A DNA stretch of 64,000 nucleotides from Lytechinus pictus (lineage: Eukaryota): contig NC_087245.1 in assembly GCF_037042905.1 (NCBI RefSeq), positions 32,118,001 to 32,182,000 of the forward strand, written 5' to 3'. The notes below the pieces were generated by a model. The model had not been told where the DNA came from. It made no database searches and worked only from the letters and a program-made list of their open reading frames with translations. Positions 7,326 to 58,951 of this stretch are shown in pieces. The number at the start of each line of letters is the position of its first letter. The first letter of the stretch is position 1. The translations under genes and the position numbers were made by a program.

Positions 7326-7612
7326 GGGTGCGTCGTTGGTCTAGTGGTTCTGACTCTCGCCTTTCAAACAGAGGGTCGTGGGTTCGAATCCTTGCCATGG
7401 CGTGTTTTCCTTCAGCAAGAAATTTATCCACACTGTGCTGCACTCGACCCAGGTGAAGTGAATGGGTACCCGGCGGGATTAATTCCTTGAATGCACAAGC
7501 GCTGAAAGGCAGCTCAAGCTAAAGCCGGGGTAATAATGATAATAACAATGTGCCTCGGAATAGATTATTTCTAGAAAGATGGTGCTATACAAATGCCTAT
7601 TATTATCATTAT
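7326..7612 (+). mobile_element. tRNA-derived SINE (family A, full length)
   Basis: A box TGGTCTAGTGG, B box GGTTCGAATCC, core GCACTCGACCCAGGTGA..AATGGGTACCCGG and (TTA)n tail. Homologous copies occur elsewhere in the window. Confidence 0.9.
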
Positions 7613-16574: not shown

Positions 16575-16810
16575 ATCTGAATCCTAGCCTTGGTGTGTTT
16601 TCCTGCAGCAAGAAATTTATCCACAATGTGCTGCACTTGACCCAGGTGAGGTGAGTGGGTACCCGGTAGGAATAATTCCTTGAATGCACGAGCGCTGAAA
16701 GGCAGCTCAGGCTAAAGCCAGGGTAATAATAATAATAATAACAATGCACCTCAGATAGAATGTTTCTAGATAGATGGTGCTATACAAATGCCTATTACTA
16801 TTATCATTAC
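16575..16810 (+). mobile_element. SINE family A, 5'-truncated
   Basis: Near-identical to 7385-7612. Confidence 0.88.
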
Positions 16811-17539: not shown

Positions 17540-18658
17540 GAGTTGAGTTGAGTTGAGTTGAATTTATTAACAACATTAACATATTTACATGAATGAATAT
17601 ATGTGTAATACATATTTACAAGAATGTGTTATATAACATGAATCATATAAATGCAATTCATAACATAACATAATCATAGTCTAAATAAAAACACAATATA
17701 ATACCGCATGTGATATCAGCATATAATACAAAAGAGTAACATCATGTGTTTTGTCTTGATGCAGTTTCACCTGACAAGAAGCAAATCACCATAAAAATGG
17801 ATTGTATGCATGAACATAAATTATAAATGGTATGGGTGATTTTGTACCAAATGAAATGCTGTTAAAGGGAGAACCAAAAGTTAGCACAAGTGCTAGTCGA
17901 GAATGGTTTCCCAAAAGGATCAAAGTTCAATGTATCTACTTCTAAAACAACTTTGTTTTATTTAATTTTTTTCCAAACTCATATCAATCATCAAACTTCA
18001 TTAATCAAGTAATTTTTCAGATTTTTACGAAATGAAAACCGTGTTCTTTTCTCTCGTATACTCTGGGGCAAACTATTTCAAAACTTTGCTCCAATAAAAG
18101 ATATAGAAAAAGTGCCATGTGTAGTGTTACATTTGGGGAGTCTTAGCATGGAATGTTCTCTGCCTCTGGTTTTGTAACTATGATTTAACATCTCAAAGTA
18201 TTGCTTTACAGAATGTGGTAAATGTTCCTTGTGTAAATCATAAACAAATGTTGATACTGCAAGTTTATGCAAGTCATAAATACCTAATACCCCCAGACTG
18301 ACGAATAGTGGCGTAGAGCTTGTTCTAAGTGGAGAAAATGTAATTGCTCTCATAGCCATTTTCTGCGCCAAATATATACGATTTAGGTGGCTCCTGTAGC
18401 TACTTCCCCAAACTTCAATTCCAAAAGATATGTGTGGTTGTATAAAACATTTATACAAAAGCATTAGAACATGCCGTGGTACATAGTAACGTAATTTAAA
18501 AAGCAAACCAATTTTCCGCCTAATGCATTTATCAATACATTGGATCTGGTTTTTCCACAACAAAGATTCATCGATTTGAATTCCTACAAAAGATGCCACA
18601 TGTACTTTTTCTATAACTGTTTCACATAAAGTTAATACACCTTCAATAGGCGGTTTAA
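17540..18658 (-). mobile_element. 5'-truncated CR1/L2-group (Crack/Daphne-like) LINE
   Basis: ORF 18078..18599 (LWKNQI..KIGLLFKLR..LYKCFIQPHISFGIEVWG..AQKMAMRAI) matches the C-terminal region after the RT domain. 3' UTR hairpin at ~17867-17912; (AACTC)n tail at 17540-17560. Confidence 0.85.
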
Positions 18659-21600
18659 CCTTTAAGAGGCGGTTTGTTGCACAAATGCTAGATAGGATCT
18701 AATCCCTTTGAAATCTATGTCTGAAAACTTAAACAGTACCTGTATTAAGAGTCTATTTTGTTGCACAATGCTAGATAGGATCTGATCCCTTTTAAATCTA
18801 TGTCTGGAAGCTTCAATAGTACCTTTAAGAGTCGCTTAATCAGTACCTTTAAGAGTCGGTTTGTTGCACAATGCTGGAAAAAAGCTGATCCTGCATTTCA
18901 GAGTTGCTCAACCAAAGTCGCTACAGAATGGGAACACCTATCATTCAAGCTTCTCTGCCCCGAGGCAGTTTCAGACAAATAATAAAGTTGAAATAGCACC
19001 GCAATGTAGCACAAAAAGACATTAACACCATACAGGGTGTACTAATACAAAGGAAAGCCAATTTTAATGTCTGTTTGTGAGAAAATAATGCTATTGAAAA
19101 TTGTGAAACTGATATTACTTGAAAGTATGATTTATCAGCACTCCAATGATACTTGAATTAGTTTTCTTGAACCAAGCATCACTGAACAACATTGTTCTGA
19201 AAATCTGGTGCAAATGATGTGGTTCCTTTCACTGCATATAGATAGGCAAACTGTTATTGTGCATTTGAAGAATTAAATTATGCATTTGCTTGGTAAACAT
19301 TACTTCTAAAAGAATTATTTTTATATCTTTGAATTGAATCTACTACTTCTATTTAAAATGGAATGTATATCTCTTAATAATTTTTTTTATTCTTCTCACT
19401 TCACTGCAAAATTACTTTTGATCTAAATATTAACAGCAGGATGAATTAATCTGTATTTGAATTGACAATGCAAGGCATTCCACAAGACTACTGAGCCTTA
19501 GGATAAATTGTTTTGCAAATAACAGTTTTTTTAAGCATTACCATCACTATCATTATCATCATCTTAATCATCACCAGCACCACCACCATAATCATCATCA
19601 TCATCATTATTATCATCACCATCATCATCATAGATTTGCAACAAAAAAATTAAAAAACATATCCTCTCTATCAAGTCTTATTTAAACATACAAAAACCCT
19701 TGACCCTTGACATATTTCAGCCATCAATTATTGAAAATGGATTTATTCGAATGACGAAACAGCGAAAAAGCGTCAGTCCTGGAGTAAATTAGCTTTATAA
19801 ATTGCTCGCGCCTATTACATCTCATTACACCATAGCAGAGCCCCAGTGGGTAAAGAGAACATCAGGAACGGGATCAGGAGAAACATTAATGAGATTTGGT
19901 TCCCTGTGAGAGAGGGGACTACCTCAACTCATTTCCTCTGATCCTTTATTGACTGATTGCTCCCGGCAATATTCCTCAACAGCCCGTCTCTTCTCTGTTA
20001 TTTAGATTACAGCAGTTGATCGGCAAAACAACGCTCTGAGCTCGGAGAATAATAAAGACAAGCATCCCTGTTTCTTTCATACTTGTGTACGAGGGGACCA
20101 CGAAACACTAAGCGTTGTACCTGGTTATAAAATTTATGCTTACGATCGATTGCATACAAAAATCAATGCAATCGGTTTTTAATTTCAGTCTCGCAATCAA
20201 ATTCTAAGCTCTCTGTTACAGGGGCCAGATAATCAAATACAGGGTATAGAACAGTTTCATATATTCTGCAGTGATTGATAAAGTTAGATACCACTTGCAT
20301 TTCCAGTCAATCCAACAATCTCAAAACAGTCTCGTCATGTATGTATAGATCAAACAGAGGACACCTACATTGTTATACATATTAAAGAAAAAAGACTATG
20401 GGATGAGGTGCTCAAATATGATGACACAAATTCAAAACTTTTAAATCAATTTCTCTCTTTTTAAATATTCTTTGATGGAGTTTTGTCAAACCTTCAACAT
20501 TATATTATTCTCTAATTTTATATGGTTTCACCGAAACAACTTTAATGTCAGATTCAACTTCCCCTTTAAGACGACTACATCAAAAAATTAAAAAGTACGG
20601 TTTTCCCAAAAGTGCATGGTAATTTCCATCCTCTGCTCATTAATCCAATGCCTATTACTTTCTGCTAAATATAGTCACCCATCGTTACCAAATGATGGTC
20701 TCAAAGGCGGAAAATTATCTATAAATAGGCCTCCTACATGGAAACGTATCCAATTTTCTAAAGAAACGGGGTTATTTCTTATCCAATACCTCTAACAATC
20801 AGGTCTCGAGGTAGATGGACGGAAAATATAGATTAATGAGCGCAGGCAGTGGTATCAAAGTAGATATGTTTGCTAAGGAATGATCATTATTACAATGCTA
20901 GTATGCCCTCATATAAAGCCTCTGGGTATAATGATTAGCCTACATCTTTCTCAAAATTATGACGGCGCACAAACCAAGAGACTTCTTGAGACTGTTACCC
21001 AATGGCAACGCGATGAAAATCATAAGATTTCATTGTGGGTAAACAAACAGCGGGACAAACTTAAAGGGGTTTTGTAGAGAAGGGGGAGGGAGAGGGAGAG
21101 AGAGGGGGAGAGAAAATGGGAGAATGTGGGATATGTGGAAGCATCATGATGTTCTATTTAATCCTTCTATAATTAATTCATTAATTCATCTTTTTTTACT
21201 TTTTACTAATTTTATTATCACAAATAAAATATATTTCTGTGACTGGTTTGTCTTTATTATACACGTATGAATGTGTGTGCCCTATTCATTTATGATTAGA
21301 AGGACATGAAATACAAATGTATTCTGTAGGACAAATTGTGCGATTTTGCATTACTTGGATACTGCCTGGTCAAAATAAATTATGTTGGTACTTCTTTTTC
21401 TTAAGACTTAAATAAATCTACTTCTTCAACACAGCATGTGCAGACAATTCCAGGATATACTCTCAGTCTGTTGCTACCTGATATCCTATCACAAAGCTTA
21501 CAAGACGAGTGTTCCAAGGATCATGTTTAAAGAAAAATATAACATTAAAACAAATCAGTCATTGAAAATTTCATTCAGTTGCCACTGCACAGACTCTTGA

Positions 21601-26380: not shown

Positions 26381-26674
26381 AATAATAATAATATAGAGTA
26401 TTTATAAAGCGCCAAATCCACATTGATTATGCGCTCAAGGCGCTGAAATATACTTGGTATATTATTATTACCCCGGCTGTAGCTGAGCGGCCATATAGGC
26501 GCAAAAGCATTCAAGGAATAAATCCTACCGGGTACCCATTCACCTCACCTGGGTCGAGTGCAGCACAATGTGGATAAATTTCTTGCCGAAGGAAATTACG
26601 CCATGGCTGGGATTCGAACCCACGACCCTCTGTTTCAAAGTCCGAAGACTAATCCACTGGGCCACAACGCTCCA
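26381..26674 (-). mobile_element. SINE family A (alternative 3' tail)
   Basis: Reverse complement of the tRNA head and core; similar to 31559-31845; (AAT)n tail on the + strand. Confidence 0.9.
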
Positions 26675-31558: not shown

Positions 31559-31845
31559 AGCGTTGTGGCCCAGTGGATTAGTCTCCGGACTATGAAACAG
31601 AGGGTCGTGGGTTCGAATCCCAGCCATGGCGTAATTTCCTTCGGCAAGAAATCTATCCACATGCACTTGAGTCAGGTGAGGTAAATGGGTACCCGGTAGG
31701 ATTTATTCCTTGAATGCTTTAGCACCTATTAATATGGCGGCTCAGCTACGGCCAGGTAATAATATGATACCATGTATCAAAGCGCAGTTGAGTATATGCA
31801 CGTAGTAACTGCGTTATGTAAATGGACATATCATTATTATTACTA
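31559..31845 (+). mobile_element. SINE family A, full length, just left of the Harbinger
   Basis: A box TGGCCCAGTGG, B box GGTTCGAATCC, core AATGGGTACCCGG and TTA tail. Confidence 0.9.
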
Positions 31846-31879
31846 CTTAATACAATACACCTAATGTCAGCAAAACTAA

Positions 31880-32030
31880 GACCCCTGTTACACATGCGTC
31901 GGCTTTCAAAGCCGGCCCCGGAGGCGGCCTCACGCCTGCAATTTGAAGCCGCCTCAAAATCATCAAACCCCTGTTACACATAGTCTCGGGCCCGCAATTT
32001 TGCGTCTACACATAGGCCGGCCTCACGTCG
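31880..32030. repeat. Left TIR and subterminal motif array
   Basis: TIR, an internal direct copy ACCCCTGTTACACAT (31967-31981), GCCGGCCCCGGAGGCGGC (31911-31928) and repeated GCCTCA motifs. Confidence 0.85.
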
Positions 32031-32187
32031 CCTTTTCACGAGCTGACGTTGGGGCGCACTTCATGTAAACAAACGCTTAATATTTTCGCGCGGTTTGCAG
32101 GTCTTTTTAATTGCATTGGATCTCATCGACATCGCGACCGATCCGTACACATATCTTACCTCCATATTTTGTTTATATAATTGCATT

Positions 32188-32973
32188 ATGAAGGTTAAGA
32201 ATATCGTAACTATTATTTCTGATCGAAGGAGGGAATTTCGACGTGCTCAAAAAAGGCGATTCCGGGAGTTTGAAGCACGTCGTCGGCGAGTACGGTACTA
32301 TTTTTTGTTATGTGCTATAACGTTTGCCTGCACCGTGGAAAGGAGTGTGTGGATGAAGGAGCGATCTGGACATTTCTGGGAGAGGATAGTGGAAGGGAGA
32401 TTCACGGCAAGAGATTTTCGTGAAAATTTCCGTGTGAACAAGTCGACATTTGATTTTCTGTGTGGTGAGCTAGCACCGGCTATTCGTCGCCAAAACACAC
32501 GATGGCGTAAAGCAGTTTGTGTCAGAAAGAGAGTTGCCATAACTCTGTGGCGTTTATCCACAAACTGCGAGTATCGAACAATCGGGCATCTTTTTGGGGT
32601 AGCGAGATGTACCGCCAATGTCATCGTCAACGACACCTGCCTTGTAATTGTACAAGAACTAATGAGAAGATATATTACCTTTCCTTCTGGAGATAGATTA
32701 CGGGCAACTGTTCAGGGGTTCGAGGACATGGGGTTTCCCCAAGTTGCAGGTGCCATTGATGGAACCCATATCCCTATAATTGGACCTGTTAATTACCATG
32801 CTGATTATCATAATCGAAAGGGATGGTACTCTGTCATTCTCCAGGCAGTTTGTGACCATAAGTACATGTTCACAGATATCATGGTAGGATGGCCAGGACG
32901 CTGCCACGATGCCCGGGTGCTGGCAAACTCTTCTTTTCACCGAAGAGCGGAAAATGGAGAACTGCTTCCAAAT
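32188..32973 (+). CDS. Harbinger transposase (HARBI1-like, DDE_Tnp_4 family), exon 1
   Basis: Motifs FRENFRVNKSTFDFLC, RKRVAITLWRLST..YRTIGHLFGVARCTA (HTH), GAIDGTHIPI (catalytic D), YHNRKGWYSVILQAVCD and WPGRCHDARV. First ATG at 32188. Phase-0 donor AAT|GTACGT at 32974. Confidence 0.93.
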
Positions 32974-33298
32974 GTACGTTTACTTTTAAATCTAATTTAT
33001 AAAACTTGAATTAAATTTCATTTTATTATTAAAGATTTAAGCCACAAAAGATTATGATAGACTACAATCATTTAAAATCTCATAGATCTACAAGTCAATA
33101 GTAACATGCACATTTCATTTTTTTAAAGGGATAATATAAACAAAGGATTTAAAACAATAAATAAACCTAGAGAAATCAAGCCTAGAATAAGGGTAGATCT
33201 TCTTTTAAAATTTCATAAGTAATAATAGGCTACCATTAGTTTGCTCCACCTATTCATCTAAAAACACTGAGGTTTGTGTGATTTTGATATTTCATCAG

Positions 33299-33439
33299 CA
33301 GGGCCATAGCCAGTGTTTGATGTTTGGGGGGCACATACATGTAATTGATCAACGTCCTGGGGAGGGGTCTATAAGGATGGGTGTGTGATCTTGGGGGGGG
33401 GGGGGGGCACGTGCCCCCCCCCCCCTGGCTACGGGCCTG
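33299..33439. mobile_element. Small MITE-like insertion in the transposase intron
   Basis: Ends CAGGGCCATAGCCAG and CTGGCTACGGGCCTG are inverted at 13/15. Internal polyG-CACGTG-polyC hairpin. CAG start resembles hAT-type elements; no clean TSD. Confidence 0.6.
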
Positions 33440-33608
33440 CATGTTCATCAGCATGATCAATGTGTATTTTAATGAATTAATTTTAATATATATTTTTCTA
33501 AACATCTTCATGATATTAAAATAGACCTCTACTTAGTATTGATGTTATTAATATTATTAAATGATTATATTTCATTATTATCATTTTCAATACATTGTTT
33601 TTGACCAG

Positions 33609-34034
33609 ATGACAAGAAACATCAATGGCCAAGATGTTCCGCTGATGATACTTGGGGACCCTGCCTACCCACTGCTGCCATGGCTAATGAAAGGTTTTGC
33701 CGATAATGGTCGTCTGACTGAAGATCAGACTAACTTTAACTACAGGCTCAGCAGGGCGAGAATGGTCATCGAAGGTAGTTTTGGTAGACTGAAGGGGCGA
33801 TGGAGATGCTTATTGAAGCGCAATGACAGCGCTCTTGAGAACGTAACTAATATTGTTGGAGCGTGTTGTACCTTGCATAACCTTTGTCAGATGCAGTCCG
33901 ATGAGCCAGATGACGAGTGGCTTGATGTTGCTCATGAATTACGAGAGTTTCAGCCACCTTGTCCTTTGCCAAATCAAAGGCCTGCACCATCAGCATCTGT
34001 AGTGCGTGATGCTCTTGTTCAGTATGTTAGGTAA
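33609..34034 (+). CDS. Harbinger transposase, exon 2 (spliced product 403 aa)
   Basis: Acceptor TTTTTGACCAG|ATG in phase 0 joins exon 1 in frame. Motifs [40 protein letters not shown] and ACCTLHNLC; stop TAA ends at 34034. Confidence 0.93.
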
Positions 34035-35525
34035 CTTTTTTTATGCATTTCTTCAACCACTGTTAATGATATTCCACAGGTGTAAACAGAGCCTCAAATG
34101 AACTCATTCATTCGGTTAGTCAATGACCCCCCCCCCCCCCCAACCCCCGCCCTCATGATTGAAAATGTTATGTAGCCTCTGTTTTGTAATGTAAAACAGT
34201 TATCAAGAATAGAGTTTTCTCTCTTGGACATTTCTCTTTGTTTTTCCTTTTTAATTATTAATTTATGTTAATCATTCATAATAGACTATTGAGAAAATGC
34301 AAATCTGTTATTTTTTTATAATCCATTTTAAAGTAGATGGTTGGCCTTTTTGTAATGAATAATCTTTTTTTTTTTTAATAATATGCTTTTATTTCACCAA
34401 GTCATTTGTTTCATATTTTACTATACAGAGTGATGAAAAAGTAGTAAATTTAAGGTAGGCCTATGGCAGATAAGATTATCAGGGCCAGAAGATTGTCAAT
34501 TAATTAGAATGATTTTTTTTTCTTCTTTGTATCAGTCTCTTTCCCAATCCATGGATACAGTAAGACTGGGTTTATGTTATTGTCAACCATAGCTGGGGGC
34601 TTTAGGTATGCATAGCAGAGGTTAATGTATGCACTGACATAGCAATGCATCTGACCAGTAGCATAGCACACTGCAATCTTCTTTTCATCTTGTGTTTCTT
34701 CCCTGTTATGACTGACATAAGTTTAAGTGTTTTAAAACCGAATATTCAAATTCAAATTCATTTGCCTATATGATCTACAAGTGATGAACACATTTTAACC
34801 ATCTTATCCTGTGCCCATTCAAAAGCCAGTTTTGTGTTATGTTATTTCATTTGAGGTAAAATGCAGTTGTATTGTTATTTTTTCAAGCAAATATAGTGCC
34901 AGAAGCATTATTTTTTTTCTTGTTGTCCATGTGACTTTCTTGCTATTTCATCAATGCGATAATTTATATCAATCATTAATCTTAAAAGATGCACTTTAAA
35001 CTTGACACCAGCATGCCTCATCATGGGAAGATGAATTAATTTTGTTTAGGGTTATGTAGGTCAAAGGACACAGAGGTTAATACACATGAAACATTACCTA
35101 TTTGTAGTTCTTTTATCATAATATCTTGTACTATTTGCTTCTTGTATTCAATGTGCTAACAAGTATTCATTTGGAGAGGAATTTCAAACAAAGGTTACAG
35201 AGGTAAATGTATAATGTATATAAAACAATACCAGATAAACATGATTTATCTTCAAACCCATGTGGATAAGTAGTAATTGCTTGGGGGCAGGCGCAAGTGG
35301 TCATTATCTCTTTAGCTATGTGATTATATTGGATTGTATTCAACCACTATGAAATAGCTGTTTTGTACATATATGTCGTTTTTTCTTCTCTAACCACTTT
35401 TAGTTCAAAATTGTTAGGTATTTTCTGTGTATATGTTAAATACAACATGCCTCCGATAATGAATAAAAAGAAGAAAAAACATCAAGAATTCAGCTAAGGG
35501 TCTATCCTATTATTTCTGTATTATA

Positions 35526-35705
35526 ACACTCTAAAAGCAAACCAATCTAAATTGGAATCAAATGGGGACATATTTGTTTCTATTCTTATTTAGAATAGAT
35601 TCTATTCATCTTTTTCCTTCAGATTCTCTTCAATTCTGAGAATTTGAATAGAAACTAATATGTCCCCATTTGATTCCTATTCATATTTGATTAGTTTGTT
35701 TAGAA
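35526..35705. mobile_element. Palindromic MITE-like element in the Harbinger spacer
   Basis: Long inverted arms GGAATCAAATGGGGACATATT..TTTCTATTC and GAATAGAAA..AATATGTCCCCATTTGATTCC; starts ACACTCTAAAA. Confidence 0.6.
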
Positions 35706-36737
35706 AACACATTAAGTACATGTCAGTGGCAGACACAGAAATCTTGGGGGGGGGGTACCCCAGGTGTTATAGTTTGTCTTGTTGATGTCCATTTTTTTCT
35801 GGGGGGGGGGGGGCTGGAACATGTATCATTGTCCATTTAACATTGTAGAATCAAAAGGTAATATTTTTTATTTAAAAAAAATTTAAACAAATTATGAAGT
35901 ATAAAGATACAGAATTTAAACAAAAAGTTTCATAGTACATGTACCAAAAAGGCAATTTAGGTCACTATATTACAACATTATTTTGACTGACATGGGGTGT
36001 AATATAGAATTTTGTTGGGCCTGTAAATGCTTAAATATTCCAAGAGGGACTATTTTTCTGCAAAGCATGTAGTGTTTGGAAAATGTGATGTTTTCCAAAG
36101 AGGAGAAATTAATACCCGAGATGCCAAGATATGTTATCTTTCAACTCTTGCAAGATGACATATGGCACCTCTATTATTATATTCTCTTAGGATTAAATCA
36201 CACTTTCCTTGACTCTATAAGCTTTGCAAATACATGTATATATAAGATAGTCTTTTTTGTTAAAGAGCCGATTTGCTTTGAACGATCAAAATAACATCCA
36301 TATTTTGTTTGCATTGTTTCGCAAATCCCCATGAAAAGCATGCTCAGCCAATCATTTGACTGGATCTAGGTAGACAATGTATTAACAGAGGTAAAGGTAT
36401 AGGGTTAGGTCACACATGCAATCAGGCAAGAAGACTGGAAATATACCAAACAAATTATTTATTATTCAGAGAATAATGAACACGTACATAAAAAGTAAAA
36501 CATAAAAGTGCAATATTTGCATAATGCATTCACAAAGTGCAATTTTCTTTACATAGTAACTGAAAAGTTATAAAATATACCACAATTATGTCCTGAGTTT
36601 AAATTAGTTGGCACTATCGAAAGGCAGACTTTGGTAACGTTTTATTGCCAATATACAGTTTCTTTCTTAATAAATACAAAGAAAAGGGGGGAAAAGTTTT
36701 TGAAAAGTACTGCAAATGCAATGATGACAAACAAAAA

Positions 36738-37704
36738 TGTAGACATGTGTGATAAAATAGCAAATAGACTTTGAAACTTTGTGTGAATGCATATGTATAT
36801 AACCCATCTTATACATGTAATTGCAAGATAACAAGTACTGACAAAAACAAACAGTTAAAAAATATAATACTTTACACTTTCAAGTTGTGACTCAACTTTC
36901 TTTGGCAATATCACATTGGTACAAAATGAGGGTTGGCAGCGTTTGATATAGATCTTATTTAAGAACAATAAAACATAGTCATTTGAAAGGTATGTATATA
37001 ATAGAAGATCAAAATAAAAATGGAATGTTTATATATATATACTGTATATGTACAAAAGTTCACATGTAGAAATGTGTGCTTAAATAGCAAACAGACTTTG
37101 TAACTTTGTGTGAATGCATATACCTGTTTTATACATGTACAGAAATTGCAAGATAACAAGTACTAACAAAAAGAGCAGTTAAAAAATATAATACTTTACA
37201 CTTTCAAGTTGTGACTCAACTTTCTTTGGCAATATCAAATTGGTACAAAATGAGGGCTGGCAGCATTTGATATAGATCTTATTTAAGAACAATAAAACAG
37301 TCATTCGAAAAGGTATGTATATAATAGAAGACAAAATAAAAATGGAATGTTTATATATACTGTAGATGTACAAAAGTTCACATGTAGAAATGTGTGCTTA
37401 AATAGCAAATAGACTTTGTAACTTTGTGTGAATGCATATGTATATAACCTGTTTTATACATGTACAGTAATTGCAAGATAACAGGTACTGACAAAAATGA
37501 GCAGTAAAAAGATATAATACTTTACACTTTCAAGTTGTGACTCAACTTTCTTTGGCAATATCAAATTGGTACAAAATGAGGGTTGGCAGCGGTTGATATA
37601 GATCTTATTTAAGAACAACAATAAAACATAGTCCATTCAAAAGTTATGCATAGAATAGAAGAAAAAATAAAAATGAATGTTTATATACAGATGTACAAAA
37701 GTTC
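36738..37704. repeat. Tandem repeat, 3 x ~320 bp, in the Harbinger spacer
   Basis: Near-identical blocks (e.g. CAAGTTGTGACTCAACTTTCTTTGGCAATATC) recur near 36881, 37205 and 37531. Confidence 0.9.
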
Positions 37705-38064
37705 CAATAGCAAGTAAATGGTTACTTGATGTAAAAAAGAACTACATAAAAACAAAGTTATATGTTTATAAAAATCTATAAGTGCTAAGAACAAAAAGTA
37801 CTAACATCTACAATTTACATGTAAATTCCCTTGCCCTTGGCAATGATTCTGGCAGCACTGAGATGGATGGCTAAGTAAAAACAAGGGTTTCAGCATGGCA
37901 AGAGTACAGGTGAATGATATGCAGCAACAAGTACTGAGGAAAGAAATTGTGATGAACAAAAATCCTGAAAAGTGTCATCTCATATGACAAATACATGTTT
38001 ACCACCGTGGGAATTCCAAACACACACACTCCTCCACTTGAAGAATGCATTATGTTTGTAACAA

Positions 38065-38462
38065 TTACAGTGGAGTGTAATCGTGATTGTAGGGCCAGGA
38101 ATTTGGAGACCGCTCTGGACCGGACTGGGAGTTGTTTCCCTGTTGCTGCCACATTGAAGTTGACGACTGCCGCATACCAGCCATTAAGGCCTGAAGCATT
38201 TGGAGTTGATGCTGTCTATCACGTTCTTTTTCTTGCTCTCTATGCTCCCTCTCTTCTCTTCTCCTCCTCTCCTTCTCCTCTAGTTTTTTTTCTTCAGTAC
38301 GCTGTGCCTTCATTAGGAGCTCACGCTCCCACTCCATTTGGCGCTGCATGAACCGATCCTCCCTAGCATTGAAGGCATTTGTACTGTCCTCCTCCAGTGT
38401 CTTTATCTCCTTGGCTATCAGTCCGAAGGACTCCTGCAGCTTTGATTTCTTCCGCTTTTCCC
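38065..38462 (-). CDS. Myb/SANT protein, last exon (basic NLS-like motif, charged coiled coil); spliced product 317 aa
   Basis: Acceptor CATAACAG|GG in phase 1 reads EKRKKSKLQESFGLIAKEIK.. and is in frame with ORF 38065..38349 (E/R/K-rich helix, Q-rich tail). Confidence 0.85.
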
Positions 38463-38797
38463 CTGTTATGAAGTAGGTAGTATAAAATACATCGTAAATA
38501 AAAAAAAATCAATCAAATGTGATAGCGGTAAGAAAGGTATACAATCATTTTATTTCTTTCAACTTGTTACACACATACTTTTCTGTATTTGACATAAGGC
38601 ATGCAATATCACACTTCTAATAGCTAATACAACAAATCAAGTGAGAAAACCTTGAGTTGCAAAAAAAAATCATACTGCATGAAAGCAACATCAACGGGAT
38701 GTAAAAGGCCCCTTTTCTTGAAAATTTGCTGAATCGAATTCAAATATCATATGAACTATAAATAAGCAAATGTATGGAAACAATCTGTTTATATTAC

Positions 38798-38866
38798 CAG
38801 TTGCCTTACGTCCATTAGCAGATGATGTTGAAGGTCCCTCTAGATCCTCCGGTGGAAAATTGCCAA
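38798..38866 (-). CDS. Myb/SANT protein, coding exon 2 (69 nt; not in the ORF track)
   Basis: Acceptor TTTTCTTTAG and donor CTG|GTAAT. The 69 nt keep phase 1 and read (V)GNFPPEDLEGPSTSSANGRKAT with no stop. Confidence 0.75.
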
Positions 38867-39233
38867 CTAAAGAAAATGAGGGATAGAAAAGCGATTACAA
38901 TAAGTGACTACAATAATAAACATTTCATTTTTATGCATAAAATGAAGGGGAACTAATTTTTATGTTGTTATGTGTCACTGAAGTAAAAACATTTTAAAAC
39001 AAAGGCTAACTTTCAATACATTTTTATTTTATTAAATTCAAATCAGTTCCTTTCATATTACTCAGTATAAAATGATACATCAAGACAATATAATGATACC
39101 AATAATGTTTATTTTAAATGCTCACACTGAGAGGGTAAGAGCCAAAAAGGATTAGTCTTTATAATTACACATGTATATACAAATAAACATGTATATGTGA
39201 TTACAAATGAAAAAAGGAAGAGGAATCCTTTAC

Positions 39234-39720
39234 CCAATTCTGTTGGTGCTTCCACATCATTTTCCTCCAGTTCATCATCCGTTATACTTCTATCTTCTTC
39301 GGCTCCATCCTCCTCCTCCTCTCTCGGCAGTGAATCAGAGTCCACCGAGTCTAGCGACTCAGATTGATCCTCCTCCTCTGGTTGCGACGCCAGAATGGCA
39401 ACTGGTGCAGTCTCTGGTCTGCCCCCAAAGATCTCCTGCAGTTCGCTATAGAATTTACATGTAATTCTCCCCCTGCCTGATCGATTGTTATTGTCCTCCG
39501 TCTTTCGGAAGGACGCTCTTAGTTGTTTAATTTTCCGCTTGATTTGGTCCTCTGCCCTTTCGAACCCCCTTTCTTTCATCAATTGGCATATCTTACGAAA
39601 TACCGTTTTGTTCCTTACTGTGCCATCCATCTGTTCTTGAATGTTTTTCTCCCGCCAAATATTCAGGAGGCACAGCGTCTCCACATCTTCCCACAGACTC
39701 CCTCTCCCTGTTGGTGCCAT
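39234..39720 (-). CDS. Harbinger Myb/SANT-like (trihelix-type) DNA-binding protein, coding exon 1
   Basis: WEDVETLCLLNIW..RNKTVFRKICQLMKERGFERAEDQIKRKIKQLRASF..CKFYSELQEIFG is a Myb_DNA-bind_4/MSANTD-type domain, followed by an acidic linker. Donor G|GTAAAG at 39233 (phase 1). Confidence 0.9.
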
Positions 39721-41489
39721 TTTGATCTAAAATGAGAGAACAAATACAAATACAAATTAATAATGGTAACCACAAAGATTACGATGTGGTAAAATTATTA
39801 TATAAAATTATGTGTAACATCTATTAATCACCTTTTAGGATTTTTGATCTTGTCAACAACTTCTCTTGTCAGGGGACAGTTGACATGAATATCATCAAAA
39901 ATTCAAATTTAATGATTCAGATTGATCGACCACCTAGATATATGAAGGCCCTTCTCCCCCTGCTATGTAACATTTGATGATCGATGGACAAATTATTCCG
40001 CTAAAGTTCCATATGTACCCATCACTAAAATTGAATAAAACAATTGAAAAATATGGGTATGACTTAGAATGACATAACTAATATAAATAAAGTATACAAA
40101 ATATGGGAAATCACTTTCTAAAATAACTATCTAGAAATCCATATAGTATACAAAATATGGGAAATAATATTCTAAAAATCTATCAAGTCCATCAAGATAA
40201 ACTCCTACAGCTCGGCAACTAACACGTGGCCAGCCGCTGATCTCTGAATACCGGTGGAAGAAGAACTTATTCATACTTTATTTACAAGTTTCTTTTGTTA
40301 TCATATCACGTGTTAATCTGTTAATGTATACAATTTTTAATACAATTTGCTTCTAGTGATAATTTTAGAGACGGTTTAATGATCATTTAGAGATGGTAGG
40401 CCTAGAGTGTTAATTATAGAGACAGTTAATACTATAATAGTAAGGTACGCAGAGTCTGTTACAGCTAGGGTTAGGGTTCGCAGACCCCGGCGTCCATCCT
40501 AGAGTACGCGGCCTCCTGATGACTTTGGTTGGTTAGGGATAGGACTTCGAAGTTAGAGTTGTGTATATTATTGTACTGTAATCTGTATTAACATTGTTTT
40601 ATGCACTCACCGCTAGAATCTACTTATTTTAGTCTACTTCTTTTTTGTGGGGATTTTACAGGCAGACACTATTTTATATGTAGATCTAGACCCTACTCAT
40701 TTGTTTCAATGTCTAGCGACATATTTCATGTCCAATTTCTGACTATGTGCGACTCCGACTGAGTGGATTATTGGCATTTGAAATAATTAATGGCAATTGT
40801 CTAGTTTCATGTCTCATGGCCTGGCCTGCCCCTGGCCATGCCTTCAAAATCAAAGTTAAATACTTCATCAAGTTCATGCCTCATGATCATGATGACTTTG
40901 TTTGAGGCATAAGATGATGTATTAACTCTGACAGTCTGACTCCGAGTCTGATGATGATGAGTCATAATTTCATAATCATATGAGAAAAATTATGACGGCT
41001 CATGATGTATGGCACTCCTGTCCAGGCTATTGTTTTTAGTCTGTCTATTAGTATTGATAAATTATCATCGCCAACAAAAAAATAATGATCATTCTTCAGA
41101 TGGTGCAATCACAGTAGCGATGTATTTAAAAACATCGAAATAAACAGGAAATGATCAGACGATCGAAAATCATAATTCCCAAACCCACAGAAATATAGGG
41201 ATGGGACTGAATTACAAGTCACCATCACTCATCAGTTCTGTTCGGAGAAAATACCAGGAATAAACGGTTTAAACTTTTAGCCCACCAGTACAGAATATGT
41301 CGTGTCTTAGTGCAGGCTGCTGGATATGAGGAAATTAAAATTTAAAGCAATAAATGATGAAAAACAATGTAATTTTACGCTCGGGGCGAGGCTTACCTAT
41401 AATATATACTGCATGCCTGGTCCAAATGGCAAAAGCGCGCCCGGCCGATGCATTGTTGATGATGACAGGTCGCGTCACTTCCGCTTATA

Positions 41490-41705
41490 AGCCGGCGCCG
41501 AGTCCACTTTGGTGTTACACCTACCGATTGCGGGACTGAGTCCGGACTCGGGCCGGCCTCAAACCACATCCAGAGGTGGACTGAGTCCACCTGGCCTCAG
41601 TCCGGCCTCAGTCCGGCTTTTCAAAAAAAGTTGATGTTACACATACGTCGAGCCGCCTCCGGGGCCGGCCTCAGTCCACTTGCAAACGTATGTGTAACAG
41701 GGGTC
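41490..41705. repeat. Right subterminal motif array and TIR
   Basis: Five GGMCTSAGTCC motifs, GCCGCCTCCGGGGCCGGC (41652-41669; exact inverse of the left 18-mer), an internal TIR-core copy at 41635-41648 and the terminal TIR. Confidence 0.85.
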
Positions 41706-41909
41706 TAAGCCGTGGTCATGTAAGCCAAAACTTTGATGCAGTACAAAACCTATCTATAATGACTACCCAACAGGGACAATCCGATCTGGGTTTATATGAC
41801 TGCCCAAATCCAATACTGAGCTTTTTTTTTATCATGTATTTTGTATTGTTTTGTATCGTAAAAAATTGTAACCACATATTATACATTGTGCATTGCTGAA
41901 TTTAACTAA

Positions 41910-42390
41910 GGGCCTTTTCACACAAGAATCTTGAATAATCTTTGTAATGATGATTGCAATTTGTCTTTAGAATCATTGTACCATTTACACGTTCACTCAA
42001 AACCTGTGATTTGAATTCGAATTCCTGAGCGAAGGTGGTATCGTGTCCTTGGTGACTTGTCAATCAAACCCAATAAAAGCACTGCATCGCAAAAAAGAAA
42101 CTACGATGAGTGCATGACAATTGCATTTTCTACGGAAGTGCTTGAAAAGGTCACGTAAGCTCCACCCCTCAAAAAAAAAATTTGGAGGTCAACCCTTTCA
42201 GACGTAAAATTCGTACCGTAATTTGAGTGAAACTTGACTGGAATTCACCTCCGGAGTTGAATTTGAATTTGTGATTGTGATTAGCGTTCGTGATTCTAGT
42301 TTGATTTCACACGTGTTAAAAATTTGTCATAAGAATTATTTTTCACTGGAATCATTCAAATTACGATTTTGGTACCGTGTGAAAGGGTGG
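41910..42390. mobile_element. Non-autonomous Harbinger/Tourist-like element
   Basis: TAA on both sides (41907-41909, 42391-42393). Degenerate TIRs GGGCCTTTTCACAC and GTGTGAAAGGGTGG (10/14). Confidence 0.6.
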
Positions 42391-55242: not shown

Positions 55243-57142
55243 GGTGATGGTGGTGATGATGTCAATGATGATGATAATGATGATGATGATGATGGTGATG
55301 ATGATAGTGGTGATGTTGATGGTGATAATGATAGTGGTGATGGTGGTAGTGATGATGATGATAACTAATGATTGTGGTGATAATGATGATAATGGTGATG
55401 GTGATAATGATTATGGTGGTGGTGATGATGATGATGGTGATGGTGATAATGATTATGGTGGTGGTGATGATGATGATGGTGATGGGATAATGATTATGGT
55501 GGTGATAATGATGATGATGGTGATGGTGATAATGATTATGGTGGTGGTGATGATGATGATGGTGATGGTGATAATGATTATGGTGGTGGTGATGATGATG
55601 ATGGTGATGGTGATAATGATTATGGTGGTGGTGATGATGATGATGGTGATGGTGATATTGATTATGGTGGTGGTGATGATGATGATGGTGATGGTGATAA
55701 TGATTATGGTGGTGATAATGATGATGATGGTGATGGTGATAATGATTATGGTGGTGATAATGATGATGATGGTGATGGTGATAATGATTATGGTGGTAGT
55801 GATGATGATGATGGTGATGGTGATAATGATTATGGTGGTGGTGATGATGATGATGGTGATGGTGATAATGATTATGGTGGTGGTGATGATGATGATGGTG
55901 ATGGTGATAATGATTATGGTGGTGGTGATGATGGTGATGGTGATAATGATTATGGTGGTGGTGGTGATGATGATGGTGATGGTGATAATGATTATGGTGG
56001 TGGTGATGATGATGATGGTGATGGTGATAATGATTATGGTGGTGATGATGATGGTGATGGTGATAATGATTATGGTGGTGGTGATGATGATGATGGTGAT
56101 GGTGATAATGATTATGGTGGTGGTGATGATGATGATGGTGATGGTGATAATGATTATGGTGGTGGTGATGATGATGATGGTGATAATGATTATGGTGGTG
56201 GTGGTGATGATGATGGTGATGGTGATAATGATTATGGTGGTGGTGATGATGATGATGATGTTGGTGATGGTGATAATGATTATGGTGGTGGTGATGATGA
56301 TGATGGTGATGGTGATAATGATTATGGTGGTGGTGATGATGATGATGGTGATGGTGATATTGATTATGGTGGTGGTGATGATGATGATGATGATGGTGAT
56401 AATGATTATGGTGGTGGTGATGATGATGATGGTGATGGTGATATTGATTATGGTGGTGGTGATGATGATGATGGTGATGGTGATAATGATTATGGTGGTG
56501 ATAATGATGATGATGGTGATGGTGATAATGATTATGGTGGTGGTGATGATGATGATGGTGATGGTGATAATGATTATGGTGGTAGTGATGATGATGATGG
56601 TGATGGTGATAATGATTATGGTGGTGGTGATGATGATGATGGTGATGGTGATAATGATTATGGTGGTGGTGATGATGATGATGGTGATGGTGATAATGAT
56701 TATGGTGGTGGTGATGATGATGATGGTGATGGTGATGGTGATAATGATTATGGTGGTGGTGGTGATGATGATGGTGATGGTGATAATGATTATGGTGGTG
56801 GTGATGATGATGATGGTGATGGTGATAATGATTATGGTGGTGATAATGATGATAATGGTGATGGTGATAATGATTATGGTGGTGGTGATGATGATGATGG
56901 TGATGGTGATAATGATTATGGTGGTGGTGATGATGATGATGGTGATAATGATTATGGTGGTGGTGATGATGATGATGATGATGGTGATAATGATTATGGT
57001 GGTGATGATGATGATGGTGATAATGATTATGGTGGTGGTGATGATGATGATGATGGTGATGGTGATAATGATTATGGTGGTGGTGATGATGATGATGGTG
57101 ATGGTGATAATGATTATGGTGGTGGTGATGATGATGATGGTG
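55243..57142. repeat. 42-bp minisatellite built from GAT/GGT triplets
   Basis: Unit GGTGATGGTGATAATGATTATGGTGGTGGTGATGATGATGAT, about 40 copies. Confidence 0.97.
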
Positions 57143-58951
57143 AAGGTGAGAATGAAACTCAAGACAATGGCATATTTATGTTTGGGTATGTTAAAATCGG
57201 GTATCTACAAAAATGTGTGAGACTTTCAGCAATACATTCAATGTGTTTAATTTCCTCTACTGTCGAGCTATATAGGTTCATAACCACATAGGTTTAATAA
57301 CCACATCCAAAGTAATATCTTTATCAATATCATCAATTCCAATTCAAAATCAACCCAAATAACAAATCTTTTGTACATGGAAATCACACACCAAATGCAC
57401 CTGTTCACTCACTTTCAAAAGTCACCTAATTTATGAGATATTCATTCAAGCAATCCGGGAGGAATTCCCATTATGTGGGTGTCAGTGATACAGTACATTC
57501 CAATCAGATAGTTCGGAGGATGATCATCATTTTCAAAAGACCTTCAACTCAACTTTGTCCTAGTTCATCCACCCACAGAAAGACAAAGCTATCATTATCA
57601 TTTCATAAATGAAGGTTTTTAAAGGACTTGCCTCTTTATTCCTTAAAAAAAAACTTTGACATTTAGAGAAGCTATTACTATACTATCGGGGCTTAAGTCT
57701 ATGTGTCTAAATCACACCATTTGATGGAGAAAATAGGTTGTAGAGACGATAGGGAATCTCAAACCTATTTCTACAAAATTAGAGTGCTGCTATCACATGC
57801 ATTTTGCGTGGAAGACTTCAGAGGACACATTTCTGAGATACATTTAAGATTTTATCTTACTTCCAAATGGGTTGTAAGAGAGGAGATTCCTGCTTCGTTT
57901 CAACAAATTATTTTATTGCATATAAGTCCTAGAGGGGAATAACATTATTGATCACAAAGAAACAAAATTATTTGATTGTATGAACTGAAAAATGGTATTC
58001 TGTCAAACTACAGAACGGGAATTTTCAAATGGAATACATGAAATTTGCAGACATGACATATATCAGTCACAAACGTAAAAAAAAAATGACAAGCAGATCT
58101 ATGATGTATATTTCAGTTTTGTTTCGTGTTCAAAATTTGTACCAGATCAAATAATTGACAAATTTTGAGATTTCCTTTTAATTCCTGAATATAAAACACA
58201 AATTACATCTACGATGCTTCAGAATTTCCCATAAAGGGGAGCATTATTTTGTGTATGATGAATAAATCAGATGATAGGTCAGACAACTTGTCAGAAGTCT
58301 TTGAGGAAAGGGTATGGCGTTAATTCCGAAGTTGAAGGTGGTCATTTCATTGTGTGGAATTCACAGTGAAGCAAATCTCATCGGAGCAAATGTCATGGAA
58401 CCGTCCCGTCTTCTATCAGGAATCCCACGATGAAGGTGCTATGCATCTTCCTGCATTCCCCATTATGTACAGTCTATAGTGACTGTGATGATTTGTAATG
58501 AAAAGCTGCTTGCAGGGTTTGTGCAGGGAAGACACAGCTCTGCGTTTGACATGGTACCTATAACCTATTTCTTTCTACTAGGACAAATTTGTATTGATCA
58601 ATTAAATATGCACACAAGTATGGTGAAGGATAGAAATGACTGATTTTATTCAAGTTTTTCATTTCAAATTTGTATAACAGTTTATGTTTGTATTTGTCAG
58701 TTGTAAACACATAAATAAAAGGATTATCATTTTTTTATATGACTAGGAAAAATGGATTAAACCCAAGTATTTAAGGAATAAAATTCCCCTAAACTGCAGA
58801 CGTCATCACATAAGGTCCCCTGACCACTGCCCCATACAATGCAAAAACATACAATGGGAATTTGAATAGGTCAGGGTTTAAGAACAACCTTTTAACGAAC
58901 AAAAAATGAACGCTGTACCTATACAATGCAAAACATGCAATGGTAACCTAG

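Follow-up and report, generated by a model that had tools for sequence, protein, structure and literature searches.

Introduction

PIF/Harbinger DNA transposons are described as two-protein systems in which transposase and Myb-like protein are both needed, the Myb-like protein binds the element ends as well as the transposase and serves nuclear import, and insertion is directed to TWA targets with an extended preference (PMC2836001, PMC9179366, PMC13668399). Their terminal inverted repeats (TIRs) are given as usually 25–50 bp in one account (PMC9179366) and as highly variable in length in another (PMC13668399). Here, we analyzed a 64,000-nucleotide stretch of the sea urchin Lytechinus pictus (contig NC_087245.1, positions 32,118,001 to 32,182,000; hereafter, the window), in which positions 31880–41705 hold a two-gene PIF/Harbinger transposon of 9,826 bp. 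The evidence argues that this element is intact, that both of its genes are spliced, and that near-identical copies exist elsewhere; its spread was likely very recent, and it can likely still move by cut and paste, a reading to which we assign a probability of roughly 0.8.

The zebrafish element Harbinger3_DR (Sinzelle et al. 2008) likewise encodes a transposase together with a Myb-like protein, both of them needed, with the Myb-like protein binding the ends and the transposase (PMC2836001). Harbinger3_DR, however, was rebuilt from a consensus, whereas the L. pictus element is intact as found; the two are compared here by description only (PMC2836001). Rice Ping/Pong with mPing likewise combines a TWA duplication, two proteins and a short internal-deletion miniature inverted-repeat transposable element (MITE) amplified from an autonomous element (PMC2836001). 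That is a plant system of proven activity (PMC2836001), whereas we infer the activity of the L. pictus element.

Structure of the Element

Reads from 4 of 24 listed public runs (X1, X9, X10 and X22) were aligned to the window at 90% likeness. Long-record comparisons used the eight longest records of each run, and contig depths serve as within-run contrasts only, never as copy numbers. Every PIF/Harbinger feature that can be tested in sequence was found. The TIRs at 31880–31899 (plus strand) and 41686–41705 (minus strand) match at 19 of 20 positions and are shorter than the usual published range. They are flanked by a TWA-type 3-bp target duplication, TAA at 31877–31879 and again at 41706–41708 (both plus strand), in the site context C-TAA-G; the duplication is seen at this one site, and an X9 contig (record 23) also matches through TAA-G to 41709 before diverging into 60 letters that do not align to the window. 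An inverted match of 19/20 is by itself not unusual in this window, which is rich in repeats: 55 diagonals, most of them from satellites and dispersed repeats, reach it. The element call therefore rests on the combined features. The ends are independently supported by contigs that start at the boundary (X1 record 2 at 31880, X9 record 16 at 31879), by a perfect 18-nt inverted block at 31911–31928 and 41652–41669, lying 31 and 36 bases inward of the termini, and by motifs confined to the element ends: across the whole window, all 7 occurrences of GCCGGCC, all 5 of CGGCCTCA and all 5 of CTCAGTCC fall there. The left subterminal region (31900–32064), with a second TIR core near 31968 and GGCCTCA motifs, likely contains the putative Myb binding sites. 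The right one (41397–41685), with CTCAGTCC/GGCCTCA repeats and TIR-core copies, likely carries the Myb promoter and first exon. No further copy of the element was found elsewhere in the window.

The transposase gene lies on the plus strand. Exon 1 (32188–32973) encodes 262 aa with a basic N-terminus, a helix-turn-helix-like part, D191 and the HDA motif; exon 2 (33609–34034) encodes 141 aa and the stop, with D279 and E317. Joined across a 635-nt, phase 0 GT-AG intron (32974–33608), they give a 403-aa protein in which DDE_Tnp_4 (PF13359) scores above cut-off in both exons (E 7.6e-14 and 4.9e-19), and PF13613 is weak in exon 1, under the Pfam cut-off. The intron is missing from X1 record 2, a 1,628-nt contig of organism A (presumably L. 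pictus) that joins 31880–32973 to 33609–34141 with 0 differences; a donor at 32978 was dropped in favor of this read-supported junction. IDGTH, HDA, GDPAY and IEGSFG start at residues 190, 240, 278 and 316, and we take D191, D279 and E317 to be the catalytic triad.

The transposase was aligned to 105 homologues of 380–490 aa drawn from the best 120 of 386 and the best 120 of 557 matches. Of the 90 columns with conservation of 90% or more, it agrees at 84, and D191, D241, D279 and E317 are conserved in 98–100% of the homologues. Four of the six departures (F77, N144, V186 and C222) are common to the two nearest fragments. Harbinger-type transposases of ambulacrarians, amphioxus and sponge (Apostichopus P0089, Antedon P0004, Diadema P0039 and the fragments P0001 and P0002) likewise belong to the PF13359 family, and full-length relatives are at most 53% identical among the matches listed. 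In a tree of 33 rows from selected matches, the window transposase has an end branch of 0.016 and falls together with P0001, P0002 and the Diadema fragment (support 100/96). Unlike the window transposase, P0001 and P0002 (84–88% identical) carry E in place of D191 and have diverging C-terminal tails. A search of PDB sequences with the full-length homologue P0089 gave 0 matches to a solved structure.

The Myb-like gene runs on the minus strand and encodes 317 aa. Its first coding exon (39234–39726, ATG at 39720; X1 record 6) holds the Myb/SANT domain (aa 9–97) and an acidic linker, its 69-nt middle exon (38798–38866) has both junctions in X22 and X1, and its last coding exon (38065–38462; joint 38461/38797 in X22 and X1) holds a basic patch and a charged helical region. 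The coding parts are thus 39720–39234, 38866–38798 and 38462–38065, with introns of 367 and 335 nt. Myb_DNA-bind_4 (PF13837) matches at 66.7 bits (cut-off 27, E 2.5e-18), and spliced reads accompany this match. Because many GT-AG paths leave the Myb frame open, an open frame alone is insufficient; the model is settled by the reads, in favor of which alternative splice paths were dropped, and by a RefSeq protein, P0121 ("trichohyalin-like [Lytechinus pictus]", a misnomer), which includes the middle exon and equals the 317-aa product letter for letter. The gene likely also has an intron in its 5′ untranslated region (39727–41396, minus strand), with a strong donor at 41396 and an acceptor at 39727; the joint itself we infer from these splice signals and from X1 record 7, which spans 39700–41426, matching the putative intron extended by overlaps of ~30 nt, as a splice branch would give. 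A search with the Myb protein returned 2,738 representatives whose E-value was 0.001 or lower, and the nearest matches not named L. pictus are partial and 54–85% identical. Four other L. pictus RefSeq models of the Myb gene (P0123, P0124, P0229 and P0235, under four LOC numbers) are older and have shifted or cut frames, being assembly errors or damaged copies.

All three coding introns were seen spliced in public runs. Both Myb introns are spliced out in X1 and in the raw RNA run X22 (4 reads from 2 starts and 2 reads from 1 start). The spliced Myb reads of X22 have the first mate on the plus strand, and in the first two bins over transposase exon 1 the first mate is only on the minus strand, as expected for convergent genes. 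The original prediction of 19/20 TIRs with TAA on both sides, of convergent 403-aa and 317-aa genes with canonical GT-AG junctions, and of intact acidic motifs in the transposase has thus held up, and its junctions are those used in the reads.

ISL2EU and Spy, both PHIS relatives, are not known to carry a Myb-like second gene. Spy is also described as lacking a target duplication (PMC11304231). Membership in ISL2EU or Spy is ruled out by the presence of the Myb gene and the TAA duplication.

Copy Number and Age

An identical Myb protein is encoded by 13 contigs (at least four accessions), and 1 more contig encodes a variant with 2 changed residues; by sequence, the family appears to have about 14 or more near-identical copies. 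The identity across 13 contigs indicates a young multi-copy family, not a domesticated pair. The element differs from X1 at 2 of 7,240 bases, whereas an X1 contig of the flank shows 7 differences in about 480 bases plus 17 gap letters. These results bear out the earlier claims that the element is mobile and recent. The comparison with X9 gave 2 differences in 3,351 bases. X9 carries A-type variants of a short interspersed element (SINE) next to the insertion, has nothing over the left unique flank, and covers the element in pieces at depth 2–7. This pattern is consistent with sparse host DNA from which just the repeats assemble, and with a second insertion site, where the X9 contig leaves the window beyond the right TAA-G.

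Near-Identity in Organism C

Could the same family reside in a second host? Run X10 comes from a source carried under the coded label organism C, and is the one of its 10 listed runs that we used. Eight long element pieces in X10 show 3 substitutions in 4,250 bases, 1 of them within 1,193 non-coding bases, and a few indels. This divergence is about 20-fold below the allelic difference in the organism A flank. X10 also carries indels of its own at 33730, 40641, 40979 and 41076, the first being a 1-bp loss in exon 2 that makes up 157 of the depth of 266 there; the Myb exon appears rearranged. Furthermore, in X10 alone the depth approaches 10^5 at both ends, with fixed variants at 31907, 31956, 31958, 32003 and 41525 that are absent from X1 and X9 and present in 1–2 reads of X22. 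An X10 joint from 32064 to 41459 identifies a ~462-bp deletion derivative, a MITE that retains both ends (segments 31880–32064 and 41427–41705) and that shows strong amplification in organism C and is all but missing from A.

We lean toward a very recent horizontal transfer or introgression as the cause of this near-identity, and the organism C lineage, where the family is older, is the more likely source. It is possible, if somewhat doubtful, that the near-identity arises instead from a mislabelled or near-conspecific sample or from contamination. Organism C is coded, a single run represents it, and the library type of X10 is guessed. The cover of X10 is patchy as well: out of 30 bins, 6 have no reads, including 3 within the element, and the holes follow AT-rich stretches. 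The genus also includes a closely allied name, L. anamesus, which is a near-synonym. On the other hand, contamination by organism A is unlikely, because X10, in which most long element pieces stand at depth 74–196, has no reads of A's SINE variant at 31592 (depth 0), whereas X9 shows the reverse (1,814 against 2–7). A's right-flank repeat is absent from X10 too, and also from the thin X9, which makes it a weak control. The MITE variants at 31907, 31956, 31958 and 32003, at 10^5 in X10 and 0 in X1 and X9, also speak against this alternative, as do the private indels of X10. Four organism C runs of another study hold 0.20–0.24 of the words, a share larger than the ~430 bases of the ends could supply, which is a lead only.

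Returning to transfer, we offer its fullest form tentatively, at somewhat less than an even chance: an intact, jumping Harbinger would have crossed between two sea-urchin species from the organism C lineage, which holds an amplified, diverged MITE and damaged copies, and would now be in an early burst in L. pictus, with no MITE yet, trapping genes such as PEX10.

A Candidate Gene Trap in PEX10

A search with exon 2 returned two RefSeq gene products, isoforms X1 and X2 of "peroxisome assembly protein 10-like" (P0125, XP_063965752.1; P0226, XP_063965751.1), on a 28.8-Mb contig. Each consists of 174–175 aa of PEX10 followed in frame by all 141 residues of exon 2, 141/141 identical, so that the exon 2 acceptor is shared with the transposase. 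PEX10 carries a RING finger. The PEX10 part of the chimeras matches Pex2_Pex12 (profile positions 1–162 of 214) and has no RING match. The window itself is ruled out as the PEX10 locus, since tblastn detected no PEX10 exon there (best E 0.41) and not a single 7-mer is shared, so the gene-trapping copy is likely at another locus; a PEX10 intron longer than 33 kb may alternatively reach the window. By this gene model, a sense-oriented element copy likely sits in a PEX10 intron elsewhere, where the exon 2 acceptor would capture splicing and remove the PEX10 C-terminus.

In published host–transposase fusion genes, host exons are likewise spliced to a transposase exon (bioRxiv 10.1101/2020.05.07.082677). 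The PEX10 chimera differs in that its share of the catalytic domain is the C-terminal half alone and in that it has no RING match. It therefore looks like a young loss-of-function trap, not a selected fusion.

Mechanism and Activity

By analogy with the described systems, the Myb-like protein would bind the repeated subterminal motifs, recruit the transposase through its C-terminal helical part and bring it to the nucleus, and the D191/D279/E317 triad would excise the element and insert it at TWA sites, duplicating 3 bp. Sense-oriented intronic copies would likely act as gene traps through the exon 2 acceptor, as annotated for PEX10, and the family likely was exchanged recently with organism C, where the amplified ~460-bp MITE arose. 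A predicted complex of Myb residues 180–290 with transposase residues 1–190 scored 0.42 against 0.05 for the best control, a weak pass, with contact agreement of at least 44% between runs and a partner confidence (predicted local distance difference test, pLDDT) of at least 73. In the benchmark, 51 of 78 solved pairs and 2 of 108 mismatched ones come up to the mark; scores of 0.60 or under account for 5 of the 78 solved pairs and for all 4 passing mismatches of 180. A pass at 0.42 would thus be wrong more often than right unless the pairing was likely beforehand, as it is here.

Several observations weigh against an intact and still mobile element. Expression is low, exon 1 reaching about 3× in 6% of run X22; the 15 of 58 raw-read joints listed do not include the transposase junction, the library type of X1 is not on record, and the RNA cannot be assigned to this locus because the copies are identical. 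Plus-strand RNA is also found over the Myb gene and upstream, with 40001–41548 at 2–7×. Two transposase residues are unusual, C239 (in 1 of the 105 homologues) and Q356 (in 2), and the full-length 403-aa protein is absent among the best 120 of 386 and the best 120 of 557 matches. The 13 contigs could mix assemblies, and the PEX10 chimera comes from computed gene modelling. Among those 15 of 58 joints there was no sign of an excision, an empty site or a new insertion, and the only contig of unique flank ends at 31588.

These points could be explained by a family that is young and sequence-intact yet immobile, either silenced or disabled by a private substitution, its RNA being host read-through. 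The low RNA depth, the plus-strand RNA across the Myb gene, the rare C239 and Q356 and the lack of any direct sign of movement would agree with this. We nevertheless consider it unlikely, as spliced Myb reads from the minus strand suggest transcription from the promoter of the element itself, divergence among copies is near zero, and CpG is not depleted, with observed/expected ratios of 1.36, 0.94 and 0.97 at the ends and exon 1 against about 0.5 in the flanks. In X22, plus-strand RNA at 1–7× extends over 37292–41548, antisense to the Myb gene and to its putative 5′ intron; it is plausibly host read-through, or else an antisense transcript.

A domesticated HARBI1/NAIF1-like pair, which is single copy and has neither TIRs nor a target duplication, or one locus multiplied by segmental duplication, is very improbable: open frames, introns and the RefSeq treatment of the Myb protein as a host gene would suit it, but this multi-copy element has intact TIRs and a target duplication, a different right flank in X9, a PEX10-linked copy elsewhere, and in organism C a deletion derivative retaining exactly both ends.

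Other Features of the Window

Between the genes, a spacer with the 3′ ends of both (34035–38064) is covered by X1 records 3, 4 and 5. It includes, just downstream of the Myb stop, a 324-bp tandem repeat (36737–37704, 2.9 copies) whose units are only 88–89% alike and are therefore older than the present burst. The transposase intron contains a nested non-autonomous insertion of ~140 bp (33299–33439), with imperfect 15-bp inverted ends and an 8-bp direct repeat nearby. Its right end also occurs in the organism C copy (X10 record 9; loose ends at 33299), and it has other flanks in X10; it is a possible donor-genome passenger marker, its depth being inflated by poly-G.

Outside the element, a decayed Tourist-like MITE candidate lies 200 bp to the right (41910–42390), its ends agreeing at 10 of 14 bases and flanked by TAA on each side; it is multi-copy in X1 and X22 and absent from X9 and X10. 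The SINE-like dispersed repeat that served as the species control (31559–31830) ends ~50 bp left of the insertion; it is tRNA-derived by eye, has no Rfam match, shows abundant plus-strand RNA, and has related copies at 26450–26671, 7337–7494 and 16579–16731. A 42-bp satellite fills 55245–57155 with ~45 copies, and a 206-aa frame at 18078–18698 resembles by eye the C-terminus of a long interspersed element, with no Pfam match. Rfam families gave 0 matches in the window.

Significance and Comparison with Known Systems

L. pictus has stable germline transgenesis (PMC11361634), and the two-protein mechanism has so far been studied, as described in PMC2836001, in vertebrate cells with a reconstructed element. 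If our reading is true, a native intact Harbinger would give rise to spontaneous mutations in bred lines and offer a ready animal system in which to study that mechanism, and an invasion would have been caught at its start in a lab-bred animal, with even non-coding DNA 99.9% identical. If the cross-species identity holds, the invasion could be dated, and invasion, gene trapping and MITE birth could be followed in two hosts.

Among metagenome contigs, a distant relative (L002, 8535–9806) has a broken transposase gene on the plus strand and a Myb gene on the minus strand, convergent and ~120 bp apart. A strict scan found no TIR pair in L001–L003, and the element's own TIR pattern had 0 matches in the metagenome contigs. 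As for a viral vector, the sole viral-contig match spans 27 residues (E 1e-3) and provides no evidence for one. No published description of this family appeared in titles and abstract beginnings, a coverage that leaves out most subscription papers, Repbase and Dfam.

Animal Harbingers that are intact, expressed, active or horizontally transferred have been published before, and the mechanism class is known. A sea-snake genome is reported to hold 269 intact Harbingers (bioRxiv 10.1101/2021.06.13.448261), a salmonid–carp Harbinger transfer is published, and a nematode Harbinger with natural activity appeared in print in 2026 (PMC13668399). New here are the PEX10 chimera, the near-identity in organism C with its MITE, and the putative Myb 5′ intron.

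Among animal systems, Harbinger-1M_cIno of C. inopinata is likewise a PIF/Harbinger with recent amplification (PMC13668399). There, a new insertion was caught and DDE and MADF reside on separate elements (PMC13668399), whereas in L. pictus both genes are on one. Harbinger-Snek of Laticauda resembles the L. pictus element as a two-gene marine Harbinger with intact and expressed copies, short derivatives, insertions that alter transcripts, and horizontal transfer (bioRxiv 10.1101/2021.06.13.448261). Its relatives in the sea urchins S. purpuratus and H. pulcherrimus are described as numbering 10 or fewer, none encoding both proteins (bioRxiv 10.1101/2021.06.13.448261). The families are compared by description only, with an identity of about 90% for the Harbinger-Snek relatives and of 99.9% between the L. 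pictus element and its counterpart in organism C.

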